IMG/VR virus record: IMGVR_UViG_3300029121_000010
Coordinates: 1-45,565 of that record
DNA: 45,565 nt
Reading direction: 5' to 3' (one strand)
From: a virus
Part shown: positions 1,834 to 40,232 of the stretch, one piece after another
Numbering within the stretch: the stretch's first letter is position 1
How the letters are laid out: each line of letters opens with the position of its first letter
Translations under genes and position numbers: made by a program
The notes under the pieces: model-generated
The model's input: only the letters and a program-made list of their open reading frames with translations
Told to the model about the DNA's origin: nothing
Databases searched by the model: none

Positions 1834-3198
1834 TTACCTCACAAATGGTGTGAATTGTCCGGGGGTGTTGGTTTGAGCCGTGCTGATGTATGGTGTCATC
1901 ACGTTCATAACCTCTTGTGCATTGGCTCCGGTCATGATGGTTATTTGCGGAGAGTTATTAATTGTCGTGCTTCCTTGTCCTTGCAGCATTGCTTGATATG
2001 ATCCCTTGCCCTCGTAATTATCAAACCATGATGCACCCGTGGCAAATGCTTCTCCCATCTGTTGCGGAATTGTTGCTATTCCGGCAATGGCTGCTTTCCA
2101 CCAGCTTTCTTTTTTCCAACGCTCTGCCCAGTTATCCCATTTGTCAATGAGCTTGCCAAGAGCTGATTCTCCGTTCATGCACCAGATGACAAAATCTTCT
2201 ATGGCCAAAGCAGCAACTGTGAACGCTGTTCCAATCAATGCCAGTTTGGCAATCATTGGTGTAAATATAACCAGCAAGCCAAGCAAAGCACCTCGCAATG
2301 TGCCGCTGATGAGTGATGCCAAATCAATTTTATCATTAAATTCCCCTAAGTCTGGCAAAAACCCTTTTATGTTTTTGATAAACCGACCGAGAATATCCGT
2401 TGTTCCGGTTAAGCCATCTCCCAAGCCTTTGACGGTCTTTTCTATGCCTTGCTTCAAAATGCGAGAGTTTGCCACAATCCAATCTTTCATGGACGTAACA
2501 ACATCAGTTAAACCGGGAGCAACCGACAACGCAACCGTTCGGCCAATACCCTTAAATGCAAACTCCAATGCATTCAGCGACTTTTTAAATTCTGCCCCTC
2601 GTTTGAGTGTTTCTTCAGGGATAACTGCCCCAAGAGCATTTGCTTCCTTGCGGAGTTGCTCAAGACTTAAACGGCCTTGTTTGATTAAAACAAGCGTGTC
2701 GTTGCTCAAGCCAAGGCGGTTTGCCCATTGTAGGGCTTTTTGCTCGTTCATGCCGTTGAGTTTGTCGGCAATGTCGCCAAGCAAAGCATCGGCAGATTTC
2801 ATTTGACCGGATGCATCTCGGATGCCAATGCCCATCATGAACAATGCTTCGTTAAACTCTCCGGGAATTGGCGATGACATGGTTTCTATGAGCATTTGCA
2901 AGTCTGAGGTTACGGCATCAGAAGACACACCGACACTCTCGGCAGCGTATTTATATTCTTGCAGAGTTTTTGTGGCAATGCCGGTGGTCTTACTGAGGTT
3001 GGTTAATTCTACCGCTCCGTCTGATACCGATTTGATGGTGTAGGCAATAGCGGTTCCGGTGGCGGTTGCAGCAGCGGCAACTGTTTGCATTCCCTCACGC
3101 AAATCAGACAGCCCTTTTTTGAATGTTTCAAAGGCGGCTTTAGATTGGTCGCTCAGTTTGAAGCTCAAAAGCTGGACAAGTTCGTTTGCTATCGCCAT
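1834..3198 (-). CDS. tail tape measure protein
   Basis: 454-aa ORF with an alpha-helical, Ala/Gly/Leu-rich middle and a hydrophobic segment (LLGLLVIFTPMIAKLALIGTAFTVAALAI). It sits after the tube/chaperone genes, the classic tape-measure position. Confidence 0.75.
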   Translation of the reverse strand: MAIANELVQLLSFKLSDQSKAAFETFKKGLSDLREGMQTVAAAATATGTAIAYTIKSVSDGAVELTNLSKTTGIATKTLQEYKYAAESVGVSSDAVTSDLQMLIETMSSPIPGEFNEALFMMGIGIRDASGQMKSADALLGDIADKLNGMNEQKALQWANRLGLSNDTLVLIKQGRLSLEQLRKEANALGAVIPEETLKRGAEFKKSLNALEFAFKGIGRTVALSVAPGLTDVVTSMKDWIVANSRILKQGIEKTVKGLGDGLTGTTDILGRFIKNIKGFLPDLGEFNDKIDLASLISGTLRGALLGLLVIFTPMIAKLALIGTAFTVAALAIEDFVIWCMNGESALGKLIDKWDNWAERWKKESWWKAAIAGIATIPQQMGEAFATGASWFDNYEGKGSYQAMLQGQGSTTINNSPQITIMTGANAQEVMNVMTPYISTAQTNTPGQFTPFVR

Positions 3199-3201
3199 TT
3201 G

Positions 3202-3797
3202 TTATTCCCCTCTTGCTTGGCTCTCAGCATAATCAAGCCAATTGTCTATTTTTTTTGCAATGTAAAATGTTTTCACATCGCTGGTTTTGGTCAAATAATC
3301 AAGGTTTATAATACCTTTTTTGATTGGACCGGAGATAAAGCTGATGGCTCGATATCCATCTGGGATGTCGATAAGTTTGCCACCATTGATTTCAAGCCTA
3401 CTACTGCTGAATTCAGCGTAGCAGGCAATTGTTCCCCCAACAGTTCAACCATTGCAGCAACAACAACCAGCCAAAGCTCATGGCTGTTTTCTGTTTTTGA
3501 AAACCAGCTTTGAATAACCATCTCGTTGTCCAAGCGAACATTCTCCGGTGTGATTACTCGTTGCAAAACCTGATTAATAATTTGTTTTGTTTCTTCCGGA
3601 TTTATGGAAGAAAAAAGAGCAATAAAGTCGGTGTCTTCAACTTTTTTGTTCTTCTCGGTCACAATCTTTGTTAATCCGGCAAGGAGGCCGCCAAACTTGC
3701 TCAAAAACTCCAAGTGATACATGACGGCATCCATAACCGAATAGCTCTCAACCTTATAAACGTGGTTGTTTATTGTTATTTTTGAAAAATCCCCCAT
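3202..3797 (-). CDS. tail assembly chaperone, G and GT forms via -1 programmed ribosomal frameshift
   Basis: The zero-frame ORF 3306..3797 (163 aa) ends ...QSKKVL*. The slippery heptamer A_AAA_AAG lies 3 codons before the stop (minus strand tcA AAA AAG gta tta taa). The -1 frame then stays open for 37 codons (GIINLDYLTKTSDVKTFYIAKKIDNWLDYAESQARGE) and ends 3 nt before the tape-measure ATG, which is the canonical G/GT arrangement between tube and tape measure. Confidence 0.6.
3315..3321 (-). other. -1 frameshift slippery heptamer A_AAA_AAG
   Basis: Plus-strand cttttttg read on the minus strand gives tcAAAAAAG in the zero frame of the chaperone ORF. It is the same heptamer as the E. coli dnaX slip site. 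Confidence 0.55.
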
Positions 3798-3819
3798 TTT
3801 TATCTCCTATGATTTTTCA

Positions 3820-4227
3820 TTAATTGATTAAATAATCAGTTCCAACAAAGGTGTATGTGATACCGCCTTGTTTCTTGTCGCCCGTGCTAAGGCTTGACGG
3901 GTTGCTTACCATTGCGTTGGTAATTGTTACCAGCATATCGGCACCGGTACGCAAAACAAAGACGGATGTTACACCGGTTCTTTGTTGCAATGTCTTTGCG
4001 GTTTCAAGCATAGAAATTGATTGAGATGTTTCTCGGAACGTGATTGACACTCTGATGCCTTGGTCGGTAGCTTGGTTTAATCCGCCGCCGTCTGTTCCCT
4101 CGGTGATGTCAACTTCTCCGCCCACACGTTCGAGCACAATAGAGCTTCCGTCCATCAAGCCTTTCAAATCAATACCATTAAAAGATGCGGAACAGTTTCT
4201 TTGGTTATAAACTTTTTTAATTGACAT
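3820..4227 (-). CDS. tail tube protein
   Basis: 135-aa ORF directly downstream of the sheath gene and upstream of the chaperone/tape-measure genes. Confidence 0.55.
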   Translation of the reverse strand: MSIKKVYNQRNCSASFNGIDLKGLMDGSSIVLERVGGEVDITEGTDGGGLNQATDQGIRVSITFRETSQSISMLETAKTLQQRTGVTSVFVLRTGADMLVTITNAMVSNPSSLSTGDKKQGGITYTFVGTDYLIN

Positions 4228-17785: not shown

Positions 17786-20700
17786 TTATTGTCCGCCCCC
17801 GGCATATCTCCAGATAGAATGGGCCATTGATGCGGCATCACAATTTGATACTAAAATATTATTTGCATAATAGCAACCAGCTCGAACTGTTATATTATAA
17901 ACCCTTTTCTTTGGCTTTCCTGCGTAGTTCTCTTTTAAGGTACTTATCTCGACACCATCGACATATTGTCTGCTCTCTGTGGTCGTTTGGGGTATTAAAT
18001 CTTCTTCCGCAATCGGGACATATTTTAGTAATATGAAGTTTGGCAATGTATTCTTTTTGATGTTTTGAGTGCCAATCTCTCCCCTCTTTTGAGCGATGCC
18101 ACTCTTTGCACATTTCTCTACCTCTTTTATTTGCTTCTTGCATTTCAGGTCTTTTCCAAATTTCAGCGGTTTTTTTGCCATGAAGTTTAGCGTGTTCACT
18201 ACTTGATAAAAGAACCAAATTGCTAAAATCGTTATTATCTTTATTTTCATCTTTGTGGTGAATGTGATAGCCTTTAGGAATTTCTTTTCCCGAATAAAAT
18301 TCATACACAACCCGATGAAGCCGGAATGTTTTTCTTTTTCCGTAAGCAAAGATTTTATTTTCATAATATCCTGTCTTTGGGTTACGATAGTATTTTTTGC
18401 CATTGAACAGTATAAAGATTTTATTTGCCATGAGATTAATTCCTCTATGGTTAATTTACTAACCATAGAATAATCAACATTTTCAAGGCTGTCAAAAGAA
18501 TAATCGTGTGTTGTGTATATTTTGTGGTCTTTAGTTCCGGTTAATCCAATATTATCAATAACCGGCTTCATTCTGCTTGTTGTTCGTGTTATCGGAGAAA
18601 CACCCCAAGGAGTTATGACTAAATCACCAACTTTTAATTCCTCTATATTTTTATCTCCAAAAATTGTGGCGACTTTTGTTCCCGCAACAAAACAAGAATC
18701 GTCGTGCGCGTGCGACATGTCTTCGGCAAACAATGCCGCTTCATTGACTAGATACTGGCTCATTTTATCATCTTTTTTCAATTTTACAAGACCACGATAA
18801 ACATCCCATGAAAGCTCTCTTGTTCTGCCGACCTTGTCCTCTGGGTAGTCATATTCTTTGGGCTTCCAACAAATGGCATTGATGCCGGATTGTATAAGCG
18901 TTTGCTCCAAGCTGATGCCGGATGCTTTGTCTTCAATGTACATAAATGCAGCCGGATTAATTAAGCTGTCGTCCGTCCACTTTTTCCATATCCAGCTCGC
19001 CCTTTCCAAAAGCTCGGGGAATTCCCACTTGCCGACAATCATATCACGCATACGCATCTCTTTACGCAACAGCTCCCAAACTTGAAAACAAGAATAGTCT
19101 GCTGTTACCGTCTTTTTATAGGCGGTATCTGCCGTTATTATTAACTTGCCGTCAATAGGTGTGTTGTCCGGATCATAATAAACCCACCAATCACGTTGGA
19201 TGATGTTTCCTTTTTCGGCTACCGGTGATTGCTGATATTGTGCTTGGAACATGGTATCATTGAATGATATTTCTTTGATACGCTCCGGGGTGTATTGGCT
19301 TGCGATGTTGCATGTGCCGTCCGGTTCAAGCAACGGCTTTATGATGCTGTCAAATTTGTATTGCTCAAGCAAATATCCGGATAAGTCGCCGAGATGGAGC
19401 CTCTGCTGAATGTTAAATATCGGCACGTTACTGTCGTTCAAGCGTGAGAGCAAGGTTTCATCATAATATTTGCGGACTTTTTCGCGCATAACCTCAGATT
19501 GAATATCGGCCGGCTTGTTTGCATCGTCCAGGACTAACGCTCCCGAAAAGGTTGTATTTCCTCTTATTCCGCAATTATGAACCAATATTTGACTTTTGGT
19601 TATAAACAGGTTATTGTTATTCCATAAGGTAACACAATAACTGGGGGCGCTATGATTACAGTTGACAATATTGACTATTTTCCTATTCCCGAATTTAAAG
19701 GGTATTTTATCTCTAAGTGTGGCAAAATTTTCTCTGCTAAAACAAATCGCATTCTTAAACAACGAACCACATATAAAGGGTATAAATCTGTTGAACTTCA
19801 TACCGCCGATAAGAGATACCATTTTTTTGTGCATCGTCTTGTTCTTAAGACTTTTGTCGGAGAATCCTCTCTTGAAACAAGACATCTTAATTCTGACAGG
19901 TCGGATAATAGACTTGAAAACCTTTGTTATGGTACTACCAAGCAAAATACCCTTGATAAATTTGAACAAAACAGAAAATTTCAGAAACTTAACAAAGAGC
20001 TTGCGATAAAGATAGCACAAGACCCCCGTCCATACAAAGAAATTGCCGAAAGTTTTGGTATTTGTTATGGCTCCGTTAGCGACATCAAGTGTGGTTGTGC
20101 GTGGGCGAAAGTAACAGACGGCTTTAGATTTCAAAGAGGAGTAAAAACGGCTGCTGATTATATTTTTGAAAAATTTGGCGATGATGAAATTAAATTTATT
20201 CTTGACAAAAACAATTCTCGCCAATACGTTTCTGAAAAACTCAATATACCTGTTTGGAAGATAAAAAAGATTAGACATTATTTCACTACCCACGGATAAA
20301 AAGTCGGCTCGCCGCTCCTCTCCGTTTTTCAAATAAAAGACGTGGTCAGGCGTGCAGTTTATTTTTTCTCCGTTATCTAGCTCAATCTCCATATAGGGCG
20401 AATTTTCGTTTTTGACATAATCGTATATTGGCTGCAACTCTTTCTGCCTTTTGTCAAAATTATAGCTCCAAACTTTCACGTCTATTTTGTTTTCCACAAT
20501 ATATCCGAGTTTCATAAACCCCTTTTCTGTTAAAACTTCTGTGTTATAGTCAAAACAGCCAAACCCGGTAATGGTTGAACCAATGGATGCAAACAGAATT
20601 TGCCCGCCTTTTGCCGTTATGATGCGTTTGCTGGCGTACACGGCTTTCCCTGTTTCTTTCAGCAGATATTCACGCCAGAAGTCATCAATCGGGTTTTCTT

Positions 20701-21154
20701 CCTTTTCTTCCATGCCAAGCAAGCCGTTGCCGTAGAGTTCTTTGTATATCGGATGCTCTAAAATCTGAGCCACTTCACGGGCAATGTCTGATAGGAGCAT
20801 TTGCGAGAATGATGTATAAATAAAATTACACCTCGGGTTTTTGGTAAGGCAGTAAATGAGCCAATATTTGCAGAGGGTTGTTTTTCCGGCTCGGGGCGGA
20901 ATGTTCATGCATTCGCGGGTTATTCGCAGGTTGTATAGGTCATCAAAAACGTTGAACATATCTTTGTGGATACGGTCCATAATAAAAGGCTTACCCTCAA
21001 GAACTCGGAACATATAACGAAACCAAACTTCAAAACCGGCATCCAGCAATGTCTTGCCGAGATATTCCCGATTGATTTCGCCCGATAAAACGGTATTATT
21101 TTTTTGTTCCTTTTTTGGACTTGCTTGTTTTTTCTGTTTTTGGTTGGCCATCAT
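17786..21154 (-). CDS. terL: terminase large subunit precursor interrupted by two inteins
   Basis: Walker A motif NIPPRAGKTT. The exteins of 199, 293 and 18 aa sum to about 510 aa, a normal TerL size. Two insertions begin with Cys (CFDYNTEVL.. and CFVAGTKVAT..), contain TxxH (block B) and end ..ILVHN|C and ..ILVSN|C. Confidence 0.8.
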   Translation of the reverse strand: MMANQKQKKQASPKKEQKNNTVLSGEINREYLGKTLLDAGFEVWFRYMFRVLEGKPFIMDRIHKDMFNVFDDLYNLRITRECMNIPPRAGKTTLCKYWLIYCLTKNPRCNFIYTSFSQMLLSDIAREVAQILEHPIYKELYGNGLLGMEEKEENPIDDFWREYLLKETGKAVYASKRIITAKGGQILFASIGSTITGFGCFDYNTEVLTEKGFMKLGYIVENKIDVKVWSYNFDKRQKELQPIYDYVKNENSPYMEIELDNGEKINCTPDHVFYLKNGEERRADFLSVGSEIMSNLFYLPNRYIEFFRNVLARIVFVKNKFNFIIAKFFKNIISSRFYSSLKSKAVCYFRPRTTTLDVANGAITNTKTFGNFFVWTGVLCYLYRKLFVKFLKFSVLFKFIKGILLGSTITKVFKSIIRPVRIKMSCFKRGFSDKSLKNKTMHKKMVSLIGGMKFNRFIPFICGSLFKNAICFSRENFATLRDKIPFKFGNRKIVNIVNCNHSAPSYCVTLWNNNNLFITKSQILVHNCGIRGNTTFSGALVLDDANKPADIQSEVMREKVRKYYDETLLSRLNDSNVPIFNIQQRLHLGDLSGYLLEQYKFDSIIKPLLEPDGTCNIASQYTPERIKEISFNDTMFQAQYQQSPVAEKGNIIQRDWWVYYDPDNTPIDGKLIITADTAYKKTVTADYSCFQVWELLRKEMRMRDMIVGKWEFPELLERASWIWKKWTDDSLINPAAFMYIEDKASGISLEQTLIQSGINAICWKPKEYDYPEDKVGRTRELSWDVYRGLVKLKKDDKMSQYLVNEAALFAEDMSHAHDDSCFVAGTKVATIFGDKNIEELKVGDLVITPWGVSPITRTTSRMKPVIDNIGLTGTKDHKIYTTHDYSFDSLENVDYSMVSKLTIEELISWQIKSLYCSMAKNTIVTQRQDIMKIKSLLTEKEKHSGFIGLCMNFIREKKFLKAITFTTKMKIKIITILAIWFFYQVVNTLNFMAKKPLKFGKDLKCKKQIKEVEKCAKSGIAQKRGEIGTQNIKKNTLPNFILLKYVPIAEEDLIPQTTTESRQYVDGVEISTLKENYAGKPKKRVYNITVRAGCYYANNILVSNCDAASMAHSIWRYAGGGQ
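17843..18694 (-). mobile_element. intein 2 (284 aa) in the terminase nuclease domain
   Basis: Block A CFVAGTKVATIFGDKNIEELKVGDLV; block B TGTKDHKIYT; blocks F/G VYNITVRAGCYYANNILVSN followed by Cys+1. It is inserted after SHAHDDS. Confidence 0.75.
17895..18431 (-). CDS. HNH homing endonuclease encoded in an alternative reading frame inside intein 2
   Basis: HRVVYEFYSGKEIPKGYHIHHKDENKDNNDFSNLVLLSSSEHAKLH is an HNH motif. The frame differs from the terminase frame (coordinate ends mod 3 differ), and the terminase frame stays open over the same 537 nt. Confidence 0.7.
   Translation of the reverse strand: MANKIFILFNGKKYYRNPKTGYYENKIFAYGKRKTFRLHRVVYEFYSGKEIPKGYHIHHKDENKDNNDFSNLVLLSSSEHAKLHGKKTAEIWKRPEMQEANKRGREMCKEWHRSKEGRDWHSKHQKEYIAKLHITKICPDCGRRFNTPNDHREQTICRWCRDKYLKRELRRKAKEKGL
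19574..20557 (-). mobile_element. intein 1 (328 aa) in the terminase ATPase domain
   Basis: Block A CFDYNTEVLTEKGF; block B INCTPDHVFYL; blocks F/G SYCVTLWNNNNLFITKSQILVHN followed by Cys+1. The central ~200 aa are low-complexity and are the antisense of a plus-strand HNH gene. Confidence 0.75.
19652..20299 (+). CDS. HNH_3/NUMOD4-type homing endonuclease encoded antisense within intein 1
   Basis: GYFISKCGKIFS...YKSVELHTADKRYHFFVHRLVLKTFVGESSLETRHLNSDRSDNRLENLCYGTTKQN. It has a GGGGG RBS. This is the only convincing plus-strand gene, and it lies exactly between Hint blocks B and F. Confidence 0.75.
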   Translation: MITVDNIDYFPIPEFKGYFISKCGKIFSAKTNRILKQRTTYKGYKSVELHTADKRYHFFVHRLVLKTFVGESSLETRHLNSDRSDNRLENLCYGTTKQNTLDKFEQNRKFQKLNKELAIKIAQDPRPYKEIAESFGICYGSVSDIKCGCAWAKVTDGFRFQRGVKTAADYIFEKFGDDEIKFILDKNNSRQYVSEKLNIPVWKIKKIRHYFTTHG

Positions 21155-21595: not shown

Positions 21596-22078
21596 TTACA
21601 AAATATTCAGGTGCATGATGTCTGACACGGCGACAAAACCGAGTTTTTGATGTGCTCTTTTGCTGGCTTTATTCACCTTGAACACACCGGACACAATCCG
21701 CTTGTATCCAATTTGCTGGGTGAATAGCTTCAAACGTTCAATCATTTCTTTATACACGCCCTTTCTTCTGAACTCTGGCATTGTGTAAACGTGGCAAGCC
21801 CAGACTTCCTTGGTCGGGTGTCCGAAACCCACCGAGATAAACCCGATGACGCGGTTGTTAATATCTTGGGCGACAACATAGATTTGCGTTTCGTCTGCAA
21901 AGTCTTCTTTAGGCATGTTGCAGATTTGGGATATTTCTTCAAGATATGCCGCTTTGAGCTGATTTATCTGCGCCAGAGTGTTTTTGTCTTTGATGTTGTT
22001 AAATATTGAAGCCTTAAATATCAAAGGTTCTTCAAGTGCGTATTTGTCAGGATTGACATTTTCTTCTTTTTCAAGCAT
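21596..22078 (-). CDS. GNAT family N-acetyltransferase
   Basis: VGFISVGFGH...MPEFRRKGVYKEMIERL...NKASKRAHQKLGF is an acetyl-CoA-binding GNAT core. The likely start is MLEKEE at 22078, overlapping the TGA of the upstream ORF. Confidence 0.6.
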   Translation of the reverse strand: MLEKEENVNPDKYALEEPLIFKASIFNNIKDKNTLAQINQLKAAYLEEISQICNMPKEDFADETQIYVVAQDINNRVIGFISVGFGHPTKEVWACHVYTMPEFRRKGVYKEMIERLKLFTQQIGYKRIVSGVFKVNKASKRAHQKLGFVAVSDIMHLNIL

Positions 22079-22265
22079 CTTTTTCCCCTTTATTAAAGAT
22101 TTCATCAAATCGTTCTTTGGATAGTCCAACGGAAACAAGGGAAGCCGACCCCGTGGTCAGATCCCCTTGTTCTTCGTTTTCATACTTTCTTTCATCGTAT
22201 TCTTTTAAGTCTTCAACAAATCGGAAAGTTGTTTTTCCGTTCTTTTTGACCTCAACAAACGGCAT
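22071..22265 (-). CDS. hypothetical protein
   Basis: 64-aa ORF translationally coupled to the GNAT gene. Confidence 0.35.
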   Translation of the reverse strand: MPFVEVKKNGKTTFRFVEDLKEYDERKYENEEQGDLTTGSASLVSVGLSKERFDEIFNKGEKDA

Positions 22266-22268
22266 TTT

Positions 22269-23345
22269 TTATCTCTCCCAAGGATGTTCGTTATCTATGA
22301 CACCAAATAATCCCCTCTTGCATAATACCGCAAATTTTGGATTTTGCAAACCGAATGCTCCAATAACTCTTGTAGGACACAAATCTGTTTTGTTTGATTT
22401 TTTTTCAAGAAGTTGGCCGTATTTGTCTTTTATAAGCACTGTTGCGTTTATTTGTGCCTTGCCAATGCAGCAGCTCAGGCGACATTCTGCGGAGAATTTG
22501 AACGGATGCGTTGATTCTGTCAATTCAAAAATTGCTGATGCTCTGGCGACAATGTTCAAAGCAAGGTCTGCCTTGGTGCCGTCCTTTGTCCATGGGCTAC
22601 CGCCCCCGATGGGGGAGTTTCCGCCATAGAAGTCAACCGCCAACTTGCGGCCGGTGGTTCCGCAATCTCCCATGGATGAATGCTTGATGTATTTTCCGGT
22701 GCCGTTGATGATTGTTACTGTGGTGGGGGTTATGTTCTTCTTTCCTGCCCATGCTTCAACTGTGCGTTTTATCTTTGTAAACTCTTTTTTGTCTTTGGCC
22801 GGAATGGCAACGATGATTTCTTCAATCATATCGTCATCATCGAGTGTGATTTGGGTTTTGATGTCCAGACCGCCGATGCCGTCTTTCTTTGCTTTGTTAT
22901 ACAAGATGTTGTTCAGTTCTTTGGCAAGGAAATGATCCAAAGGCATATAATTTGTGTCTGGGTTGTTTTCCGCATAGCCGAAGAATATGCCTTGGTCGCC
23001 CCATCCGTCACGATTAACCCCTTTAGCGATGTCCGGGCTTTGGGTAGAGAAAAGAACACGCACTTGTAAATCATCCGAGCAAATTGTATTTTCCTTGCCC
23101 CATTTCTCGGCATATTTCTTTGTATAACCGATTTCCTCAACGGCTTCTTTTACCCATTTTTCGGCAGAAATGCTGGCTTTTGTGGTGATTTCCCCACCAA
23201 GGGTTACAAACTTGTCTTTTATTTGCACTTCCAACGCATATCTGGCATTTTGGTCTTGCTCAAGAATGCGGTCAAGAATATACTCGCTTATGTAATCTGC
23301 GATTTTGTCCGGGTGTCCAAGTGATACGTATTCGCTTGTTCTCAT
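22269..23345 (-). CDS. metK: S-adenosylmethionine synthetase (MetK homologue)
   Basis: Diagnostic MetK motifs: SLGHPDKIAD, GGEITT, QSPDI, GWGDQG, SMGDCGTTGRKLAVDFYGG, GGGSPWTKDGTKAD. Confidence 0.85.
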   Translation of the reverse strand: MRTSEYVSLGHPDKIADYISEYILDRILEQDQNARYALEVQIKDKFVTLGGEITTKASISAEKWVKEAVEEIGYTKKYAEKWGKENTICSDDLQVRVLFSTQSPDIAKGVNRDGWGDQGIFFGYAENNPDTNYMPLDHFLAKELNNILYNKAKKDGIGGLDIKTQITLDDDDMIEEIIVAIPAKDKKEFTKIKRTVEAWAGKKNITPTTVTIINGTGKYIKHSSMGDCGTTGRKLAVDFYGGNSPIGGGSPWTKDGTKADLALNIVARASAIFELTESTHPFKFSAECRLSCCIGKAQINATVLIKDKYGQLLEKKSNKTDLCPTRVIGAFGLQNPKFAVLCKRGLFGVIDNEHPWER

Positions 23346-39932: not shown

Positions 39933-40018
39933 ACGGGAGGGCGGGATTCGAACCCACGACCAACAGACACGTTGTTAACTCTGGCCAGAAAAAGCTCTAC
40001 CACTGAGCTACGCTCCCG
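39933..40018 (-). tRNA. aberrant tRNA-like gene: canonical D-arm and T-arm, non-canonical anticodon region (possible GTG/His-like loop)
   Basis: Minus strand CGGGAGC-GTA-GCTCAGTGGTAGAGC ... GTGGGTTCGAATCCCGC-CCTCCCG-T. The acceptor pairs 6/7. About 13 extra nt (TTTTTCTGGCCAGAG) separate the D-stem from the only 5-bp stem/7-nt loop candidate, TAACA-ACGTGTC-TGTTG. Confidence 0.4.
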
Positions 40019-40160
40019 ATAAGTGTTAATTCTTCCGTGTCATCTCAAAAAAAGAAACACTTTCACCCTCAAGGCCGCTTAAGACAATTAACAAGACTAG
40101 CGGTTCTGCACTTTCAAAAAGGTAGCCAAAGGCAGAAGTAACATCCGGCTACAATGTTGG

Positions 40161-40232
40161 TTGCAGGAGATGGGATTGCACCATCGACCTCTTGGTTATG
40201 AACCAAGCGAGCTACTACTGCTCTATCCTGCC
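40161..40232 (-). tRNA. tRNA-Met/Ile2-like (anticodon CAT)
   Basis: Minus strand GGCAGGA-TA-GAGCAGTAGTAGCTC-G-CTTGG-TTCATAA-CCAAG-AGGTC-GATGG-TGCAATC-CCATC-TCCTGCA-A. It is 72 nt with a cloverleaf, a 1:72 mismatch and an unusual T-loop. Confidence 0.55.

Follow-up and report, generated by a model that had tools for sequence, protein, structure and literature searches.

The gene for the terminase large subunit (TerL) in the virus record IMGVR_UViG_3300029121_000010 of IMG/VR very probably holds two composite selfish elements, each made up of the Hint domain of an intein and a separately expressed, out-of-frame homing gene for an I-HmuI-like HNH endonuclease. The window, by which we mean the whole stretch of 45,565 nucleotides that was analysed, carries terL on its minus strand as one uninterrupted open reading frame (ORF). 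The two endonuclease genes, called HNH1 and HNH2 below, lie inside the inteins, HNH1 antisense to terL and HNH2 on the terL strand in the +2 frame. The HNH frames are under purifying selection, and the TerL frame in the overlaps is only kept stop-free. The locus is a stack of selfish elements, with a nuclease gene in a protein intron in an essential phage gene, and selection on the essential gene imposes long true dual coding.

Inteins, junctions and nested HNH genes

Megablast of the region against deposited phages gave no match, and relatives were therefore sought at the protein level. This search gave 172 TerL homologues, and the analysis covered the best 120 of them. The lengths of these 120 fall into discrete classes, and homologues at 94-97% identity share the architecture found in the window, where a precursor of 1122 amino acids consists of 510 amino acids of extein and two inteins. 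The features are given here with their positions in the window and, for parts of TerL, with the residues of the precursor.

17786..21154, minus strand: TerL precursor ORF, 1122 codons, uninterrupted (from the ORF listing and translation)
20558..21154, minus strand: N-extein, residues 1-199, N-terminal ATPase part with P-loop PRAGKT, ending in ...STITGFG
19574..20557, minus strand: intein 1 ('a'), residues 200-527, 328 amino acids, Cys1 in CFDYNTE, block B TPDH, end LVHN, +1 residue Cys528
19697..20269, minus strand: read-through linker of intein 1 in the TerL frame, residues 296-486, F/K/I-rich, the 573 nucleotides that are absent from the mini-intein (see below)
18695..19573, minus strand: middle extein, residues 528-820, Walker B (GALVLDD) and nuclease domain up to HDDS
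17843..18694, minus strand: intein 2 ('c'), residues 821-1104, 284 amino acids, Cys1 in CFVAGTK, block B TKDH, end LVSN, +1 residue Cys1105
17786..17842, minus strand: C-extein (CDAASMAHSIWRYAGGGQ) and stop codon (from the translation)
19652..20299, plus strand: HNH1, 215 amino acids, NUMOD4 and HNH_3 (I-HmuI-like), antisense to TerL, codon-on-codon
17895..18431, minus strand: HNH2, 178 amino acids, HNH_3 and a Cys-rich (zinc-ribbon-like) C-terminal tail, TerL strand, +2 frame (shift of 2 nucleotides)

The terminase large subunit family phrog_38 of PHROGs matches TerL in two blocks (2.7e-66). The N-extein is matched by phrog_4758 as well as phrog_38, and in the middle extein phrog_38 covers residues 540-819, with tblastn matches in the TerL of cultured phages. 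In the intein-free alleles L002-L004 and P0066 the N-extein is joined directly to residue 528 onwards, while the C-extein CDAASMAHSIWRYAGGGQ aligns with VDSASMAHSIWRYAGGGQ in intein-free alleles.

A reading of the DNA without database searches (the sequence-only reading) had proposed two inteins with the full set of Hint hallmarks, one interrupting the ATPase domain and the other the nuclease domain, and both parts of this proposal hold. Cys1, the TxxH motif, the terminal Asn and the +1 Cys are found in each, and in block A Cys200 and Cys821 directly follow their extein junctions. With a slash for the junction, the borders of intein 1 are FASIGSTITGFG/C...LVHN/C, that is GFG/CFDY...LVHN/CGIRG, and those of intein 2 are SHAHDDS/C...LVSN/C, that is HDDS/CFVAG...LVSN/CDAAS. 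Intein 2 is placed directly after the HDD motif of the nuclease, 18 amino acids from the C-terminus of TerL. The empty alleles (P0066, P0101 and L002-L004) read GFG/AGIRG at site a and HDDS/VDSASM at site c, in agreement with these borders, and in L002 the two sites are as follows.

Empty site a in L002: ACCATCACCGGATTTGGT/GCCGGCATAAGAGGGGCG
Empty site c in L002: CATGACGACAGC/GTTGATAGTGCATCAATG

The blocks that flank the HNH genes have Hint similarity both in Pfam and in solved structures. Intein_splicing matches residues 215-527 (E=2.4e-12; 47.4 bits, with a cut-off of 35.8), and the N-terminal part of intein 1 matches the solved DnaE and NrdJ-1 intein structures with E=5e-5 to 3e-3. For intein 2, Hint_2 matches residues 821-850 with 25.7 bits, which is under the 28.4-bit cut-off, and its Hint parts have homologues in the inteins that occupy the equivalent site of TerL in the phages phiCDHM19, TJE1, Highwayman and MD07. 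At the level of sequence both insertions are thus confirmed as inteins of the class-1 type, with junctions set exactly by natural empty alleles. Protein splicing is predicted for both, because the host gene is essential and the catalytic residues are intact. The insertions adjoin catalytic motifs of the essential TerL, and alleles precisely free of them exist.

The sequence-only reading had also placed one HNH gene antisense to terL in intein 1 and another overprinted on it in intein 2, and this is what the profile searches support, with HNH_3 in both genes and NUMOD4 in HNH1. The Pfam matches of HNH1 are 6.2e-9 for HNH_3 and 2.9e-5 for NUMOD4; it matches phrog_59 (5e-36) and aligns with I-HmuI (PDB 1U3E) over residues 6-145 of 174 with E=2e-6. 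Its first ~15 codons overlap the C-terminal Hint region. HNH2 sits between the Hint halves, which is the canonical endonuclease position, and matches HNH_3 (1.5e-15), phrog_15471 (7e-28) and I-HmuI over residues 21-92 (E=3e-8). The HNH motifs are RHLN...DNRLENL...QN in HNH1 and HIHHKDENKDNN...NL...EH in HNH2. In HNH1 the modular DNA-binding part is NUMOD4, instead of which HNH2 has the Cys-rich tail. A third open frame of 115 codons with a TTG start runs across HNH1 in another plus-strand frame (19662..20009, plus strand); it is of low complexity and probably a by-product of composition, and in L017 and L018 it is open too, over 117 codons.

Gene callers had not called the nested endonuclease genes in the metagenome contigs examined, and in several cultured-phage records either only 'terminase large subunit' is annotated or the gene is split into fragments. 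In Clostridium phage phiCD119 (L023, NC_007917, 201-2595), TerL is annotated as ter1, ter2 and hypothetical ORF3, the intein and the nested HNH being unrecognised. The family phrog_35162, of 'unknown function', matches TerL residues 952-1048 and is probably the TerL-frame read-through of the HNH overlap.

Constraint in the two overlapping frames

The substitutions between the window and its relatives fall on different codon positions inside and outside the overlaps. Where TerL overlaps HNH1, position 1 of the TerL codon, which is position 3 of the HNH1 codon, takes 16-18 of 25-28 substitutions, and the ratio of synonymous to non-synonymous changes is 16/9 and 18/10 in the HNH frame compared with 7/18 and 7/21 in the TerL frame. 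In the HNH2 overlap, compared between the window and L019, 57 of 108 substitutions are at TerL position 2 (HNH2 position 3), and the ratios are 56/52 for the HNH frame against 19/89 for the TerL frame. Parts that encode only Hint have 30 of 48 substitutions at TerL position 3. The concentration of substitutions on HNH third positions establishes purifying selection on the HNH frames. Both overlaps, and with them the read-through linker of intein 1, have no amino-acid constraint in the TerL frame and are only kept stop-free, and that these inteins tolerate unconstrained linkers of ~180-190 residues is relevant to intein engineering.

The way in which the TerL frame is kept open can be followed at the level of single codons. 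In an antisense codon-on-codon overlap the HNH codons TTA, CTA and TCA are stops in the TerL frame. In the genes of the window TTA and CTA together make up 28% of Leu codons and TCA 22% of Ser codons, while HNH1, with 13 Leu (12 CTT and 1 CTC) and 12 Ser, has none of the three. The chance of an open frame was computed given the HNH protein sequence and the codon usage of the window, and for HNH1 it is 7.8e-4. The same calculation gives 5.8e-5 for HNHb, the antisense gene of a third intein described below, and 8e-4 for the copy in the E. coli phage BUCT618. For the HNH2 family the probabilities of an open TerL frame are as follows.

Window: 0.052
L019: 0.0095
phiCDHM19: <1e-4
Highwayman: 6e-4
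MD07: 0.026
TJE1: 0.18

All nine nested copies are stop-free in the TerL frame (0, 0 and 0 stops in the NUMOD4/HNH family and 0 in six members of the HNH2 family). Free-standing homologues have 19, 24, 8, 9, 20 and 14 stops in the equivalent frame in the NUMOD4/HNH family and 8, 4 and 10 in the HNH2 family. The openness of the TerL frame across nested HNH genes is hereby shown to be non-random stop avoidance, and the claim of the sequence-only reading that selection keeps this frame open is borne out, by the probability itself for HNH1 and, for HNH2, by the absence of stops in every nested copy. The split version of the gene in Vibrio phage 1.245.O has 14 stops in the TerL frame, and there the constraint is relaxed.

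Alleles in the population and in cultured phages

Close relatives with ~86-99% nucleotide identity in the exteins, identified by motif classification and among IMG/VR loci, have terL alleles with no intein, with intein 1 only, with intein 2 only, with both, with a mini form of intein 1, or with a third intein, b. The class to which the window belongs (a328+c284) is a minority, 8 of the 120 clusters, and HNH1 is frequently lost. Mapped against L001 and L021, the full and mini forms of intein 1 differ by a single clean in-frame indel of 573 nucleotides, corresponding to 19697..20269 of the window. The 137-amino-acid mini-intein is best taken to derive by deletion from the HNH-bearing intein 1, since it keeps the antisense ATG, the first 15 codons of HNH1 (part of NUMOD4) and the last 9. 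The opposite order, with the mini-intein as the ancestor of intein 1, was rejected as less parsimonious given the retained ends of HNH1. In-frame deletions are found also in intein b (182 and 193 amino acids) and in intein 2 (265 amino acids).

Intein b is absent from the window. It has 347 amino acids and is inserted inside Walker B (GALI/C...SN/CDDANK), 14 residues downstream of the intein-1 site, in L005 (nucleotides 2957-3997), L006 and L021 and in the proteins P0009, P0067 and P0107; some relatives have three inteins in one TerL, with a precursor of 1278 amino acids. It is a paralogue of intein 1, the N-terminal Hint parts being 48% identical, and its antisense gene HNHb encodes NUMOD4/HNH_3 in the same register as HNH1, with a NUMOD4 match of 2e-11 and weak helix-turn-helix matches below the cut-off. 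The nucleotide divergence of the three inteins and of the exteins around them is given here.

Intein b: 0.1-0.2%, exteins 3.3-7.9%
Intein 1: 1.4-3.5%, exteins ~8%
Intein 2: 2.7-11%, exteins 5.9-10.9%

Inteins b and 1 look recently spread, since their divergence is low relative to that of the exteins. The extein residues next to the insertion sites co-vary with occupancy: IQSEVMREKV occurs with occupied and IMSETMRDKV with empty sites a/b, and HAH...CDAAS occurs with an occupied and HAK/HKN...VDSAS with an empty site c. This co-variation would be the expected product of co-conversion during homing and resembles co-conversion tracts or changes of target-site immunity. An NTT/AKG extein pair also co-varies with the presence of inteins, with some recombinants (window 19500-19573 and 17786-17842 compared with the 120 homologues). 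HNH2 is found in this population only in the IMG/VR contig with an occupied site c; it is dispensable and travels with intein c. The population around the window thus contains empty, full, in-frame endonuclease-deleted and mini stages for three inteins of one gene.

Cultured relatives were found by tblastn with the nested proteins and subsequent inspection of the records. The design of intein 2, with the HNH in the +2 frame beside the C-terminal catalytic Asp motif of the nuclease domain, is present in four cultured phages: Clostridium phage phiCDHM19, Tetrasphaera phage TJE1, Acinetobacter phage Highwayman and Rhodobacteraceae phage MD07. Five other lineages share the +2 HNH frame with HNH2, and the Hint parts of the site-c inteins are 26-42% identical to each other. 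The design of intein 1, an antisense NUMOD4-HNH in register 0, is found beside Walker B in BUCT618. Among inteins a and b and that of BUCT618 the Hint parts are 25-48% and the antisense HNH proteins 27-34% identical, in the same register.

Vibrio phage 1.245.O (L037, NC_055736, 2399-3389) has the site SAHDDA/C... and a +2-frame HNH as in the window, and its C-terminal Hint part and C-extein are annotated separately as 'hint domain protein'. Its terL appears to be a split-intein or fractured version of the gene, in a phage that is N4-like and viable. In all cases the free-standing homologues of HNH2 adjoin terminase genes, lying between terL and portal in CL2 (L025), PAE1 (L029), Shemara (L030) and EauM-23 (L040) and upstream of terS in Acinetobacter phage BP10 (L039), which points to free-standing terminase-adjacent HNH genes as a possible source of the nested gene.

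Some other genes of the window may be mentioned here. Immediately upstream of the terminase genes is a GNAT acetyltransferase-like frame (21596..22138, minus strand), and the next frame (22269..23345, minus strand) resembles a full-length S-adenosylmethionine synthetase (MetK); both Pfam assignments were made via homologous loci, and both frames are unusual passengers beside a packaging module. In the window ARAGORN predicts a tRNA-Met and an adjoining tRNA-like gene of 86 nucleotides of undetermined identity, with a two-base 'anticodon' (gg), at 39933..40018 and 40158..40232, both on the minus strand.

Proposed explanation, alternatives and known systems

If terL holds two such composite elements, the whole 1122-amino-acid precursor would be translated, with the parts shared with the HNH genes serving only as stop-free linkers, and splicing of both inteins would give a functional terminase of 510 amino acids. 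HNH1 would be made from an antisense transcript and HNH2 by internal initiation or from a promoter of its own. During mixed infection the HNH nucleases may then attack intein-free terL alleles site-specifically, by a nick or a cut, and recombinational repair would copy the intein, the HNH gene and some of the flanking extein into them, i.e. homing. Because TerL is essential a stop in its frame would be lethal, and the HNH genes would therefore have to avoid codons that are read as stops there.

Several observations weigh against this explanation. The expression of HNH1 and HNH2 and the cleavage of empty sites are predicted from the genes themselves, and the candidate signals upstream of them, which we regard as weak evidence, are these.

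19643..19647, plus strand: Shine-Dalgarno-like GGGGG, 4 nucleotides upstream of the HNH1 ATG
19589-19617, plus strand: promoter-like TTGACT-17-TATTGT, HNH1
18441..18445, minus strand: Shine-Dalgarno-like GAGGA, upstream of the HNH2 ATG
18495-18467, minus strand: promoter-like TTGACA-17-TATTCT, HNH2

In a promoter and terminator scan, the promoter and Shine-Dalgarno matches at HNH1 and HNH2 were no better than those in shuffled sequence. Moreover, the minus strand holds 50 of the 51 long non-overlapping ORFs of the window, so HNH1 opposes the direction of transcription and would be one of very few genes read opposite to the genome direction. Intein 2 has Ser and not the usual His before the terminal Asn, a variation that inteins tolerate, and the AlphaFold2 single-sequence model of intein 1, with a mean pLDDT of 37.5, is uninformative. 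Most intein-a alleles (~58 of 67) are mini-inteins without HNH, and intein 2 is about as diverged as the exteins, with no sign of recent spread. Finally, the chance of an open TerL frame over HNH2 in this genome alone is ~5%, and for this reason the argument for HNH2 rests on conservation across lineages.

The mini-inteins and the divergence of intein c are also what an alternative based on decay would draw on, together with the in-frame deletions in inteins b and c and a change of Gly to Cys in the 'GT' motif of HNH1 in the relative L017. According to this alternative the nested HNH ORFs are relics in decay, their frames are still open by inertia, and the inteins have become mini-intein-like passengers inherited only vertically. 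We consider it improbable, as the excess of synonymous changes is in the HNH frames and not in the TerL frame, the catalytic His and Asn motifs are intact within a full-length match to I-HmuI, the HNH ORFs are open in lineages that are only ~30-40% identical, and intein b is near-identical within diverged exteins.

The constant position of the free-standing homologues beside terminase genes (CL2, PAE1, Shemara, EauM-23 and BP10) could also be explained if HNH2 and its relatives were packaging-accessory proteins, their location in terL reflecting a functional linkage with terminase and not homing. The HNH protein gp74 of HK97 is said to work with terminase in this manner. Such a role for HNH2 is decidedly unlikely. 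Genomes of the same population that have an empty site c are without any HNH2 relative, which argues that the gene is dispensable; there is no second copy of HNH2 in the window, its presence and absence are polymorphic together with the intein, and its family is HNH_3/I-HmuI-like.

In-frame HNH inteins exist in phages, and HNH2 lies on the TerL strand, so that it might be joined in frame by programmed ribosomal frameshifting, or its offset might come from a sequencing or assembly error in an ordinary HNH intein. There is very little in favour of either: a single-base error that would place the HNH genes in frame, a possibility raised by the sequence-only reading, is excluded by the recurrence of the frames in metagenome assemblies and cultured phages, the offset of HNH2 being the same in more than 100 independent assemblies and six cultured phage genomes. 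In the HNH2 frame a stop codon precedes the ATG by only 8 codons, so that a shift site would hardly fit; the TerL frame continues without a stop into blocks F and G, and these would be left untranslated by a shifted ribosome; and HNH1 is antisense, so neither mechanism applies there.

Least credible of all is that the open TerL frame is a chance by-product of composition in a gene that is really split, fractured or intron-interrupted, for although a fractured version exists in Vibrio phage 1.245.O and HNH2 in this genome alone would not argue strongly against chance, nested copies are free of stops as compared with 4-24 in free-standing copies and 14 in the split one, and for all lineages jointly the probability of chance is vanishingly small. 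A group I or group II intron in the region was rejected as well: no Rfam intron family matched at E<=1, the sole Rfam match being a spurious snoRNA (E=0.88), and the host frame is continuous.

The composite elements with out-of-frame HNH homing genes, which we thus prefer, may be part of something older, and here we consider the evidence evenly balanced. There would be two ancient frame-locked composites, a Hint domain with an antisense codon-on-codon NUMOD4-HNH and a Hint domain with a +2 HNH_3. They may have spread among phages of Proteobacteria, Firmicutes and Actinobacteria, may derive from free-standing terminase-adjacent HNH homing genes, and may be contiguous precursors of the split-intein 'fractured' terL seen in Vibrio phages 1.238 and 1.245. 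If this is true, there is a series from the free-standing gene through the nested out-of-frame gene to the HNH-deleted mini-intein or the split intein, which would document a 'splicing-first' route of endonuclease acquisition and of split-intein origin, and many database 'inteins with long unstructured linkers' would conceal unannotated endonuclease genes. With the stages present in the population and the free-standing and split states in cultured phages, these routes are directly testable.

The closest solved relative of both HNH proteins is I-HmuI, a nicking HNH homing endonuclease encoded by a group I intron of Bacillus phage SPO1. I-HmuI is carried in a self-splicing RNA intron, whereas the HNH genes of the window are in protein inteins. 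The terminase inteins of mycobacteriophages reportedly lie at conserved ATPase and nuclease motifs of TerL, as do those of the window. They contain in-frame LAGLIDADG domains or are mini-inteins. HNH and EndoVII-like nucleases are both His-Me finger nucleases, and because of this the HNH enzymes of the window may be distantly related to the EndoVII-like class of actinophage inteins. Membership of HNH2 in the frame-3 EndoVII-like class of Gosselin et al., via its TJE1 homologue, was considered and found unsupported, the SEA-PHAGES actinophages having no match to the HNH family of the window.

The sequence-only reading had taken an endonuclease gene nested out of frame in an intein to be undescribed, and in this it was mistaken. 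Antisense LAGLIDADG genes in inteins were described by Gorbalenya in 1998, as cited in later papers. Gosselin, Arsenault & Gogarten (2025, bioRxiv 10.1101/2025.01.02.630785) reported three kinds of gene in inteins of actinophages, including those in TerL, namely LAGLIDADG and VSR-like genes that are antisense and EndoVII-like genes in frame 3, and in their survey HNH was seen only in frame. Phillips, DeSimone & Gogarten (2026, bioRxiv 10.64898/2026.09.14.751524) described a LAGLIDADG gene in the +2 frame of a cyanobacterial dnaX intein, with the same argument from frame-specific selection. These non-canonical inteins agree with those of the window in having the endonuclease ORF between the splicing blocks, antisense or in another frame, while the host frame is open, in the frequent choice of phage TerL as host, and in the frame-specific purifying selection on the endonuclease ORF. 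They are proposed to have arisen when a free-standing endonuclease gene invaded a mini-intein (Gorbalenya 1998; Gosselin 2025; Phillips 2026). The enzymes differ: those published are LAGLIDADG (antisense or +2), VSR-like/EDxHD (antisense) and EndoVII-like (frame 3), whereas those of the window are I-HmuI-like HNH_3 with or without NUMOD4.

Two further systems are similar in part. The split 'fractured gene' form of Dassa et al. 2009 (PMC2677866), with GIY-YIG or Vsr-like endonucleases, is shared by the site-c family member in Vibrio phage 1.245.O, but the host gene in the window is unbroken, with one ORF through the endonuclease gene. The 'hidden' out-of-frame HNH in the phage DNA methylase insertion of ShiLan (Arsenault, Gosselin & Gogarten 2025, PMC11855218) is, as in the window, contained in an insertion that is stop-free in the host frame. 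In the ShiLan insertion no splicing domain is detectable, and the insertion is believed to be retained as a protein loop, whereas the flanks in the window are Hint domains with all splicing residues.

In open-access papers and on bioRxiv we found no description of I-HmuI-like HNH_3/NUMOD4 genes in such intein positions, of two or three such elements in one gene, of a single frame strictly kept by each family in phages of several phyla, or of a series that leads from free-standing through nested genes to mini or split forms. The general architecture is already published, and the HNH_3/NUMOD4 enzyme type differs from the published cases. With two such elements in one gene, three in relatives, and each family keeping to a single frame in phages of several bacterial phyla, the locus is an unusually complete natural system for testing the gain and loss of endonucleases by inteins.

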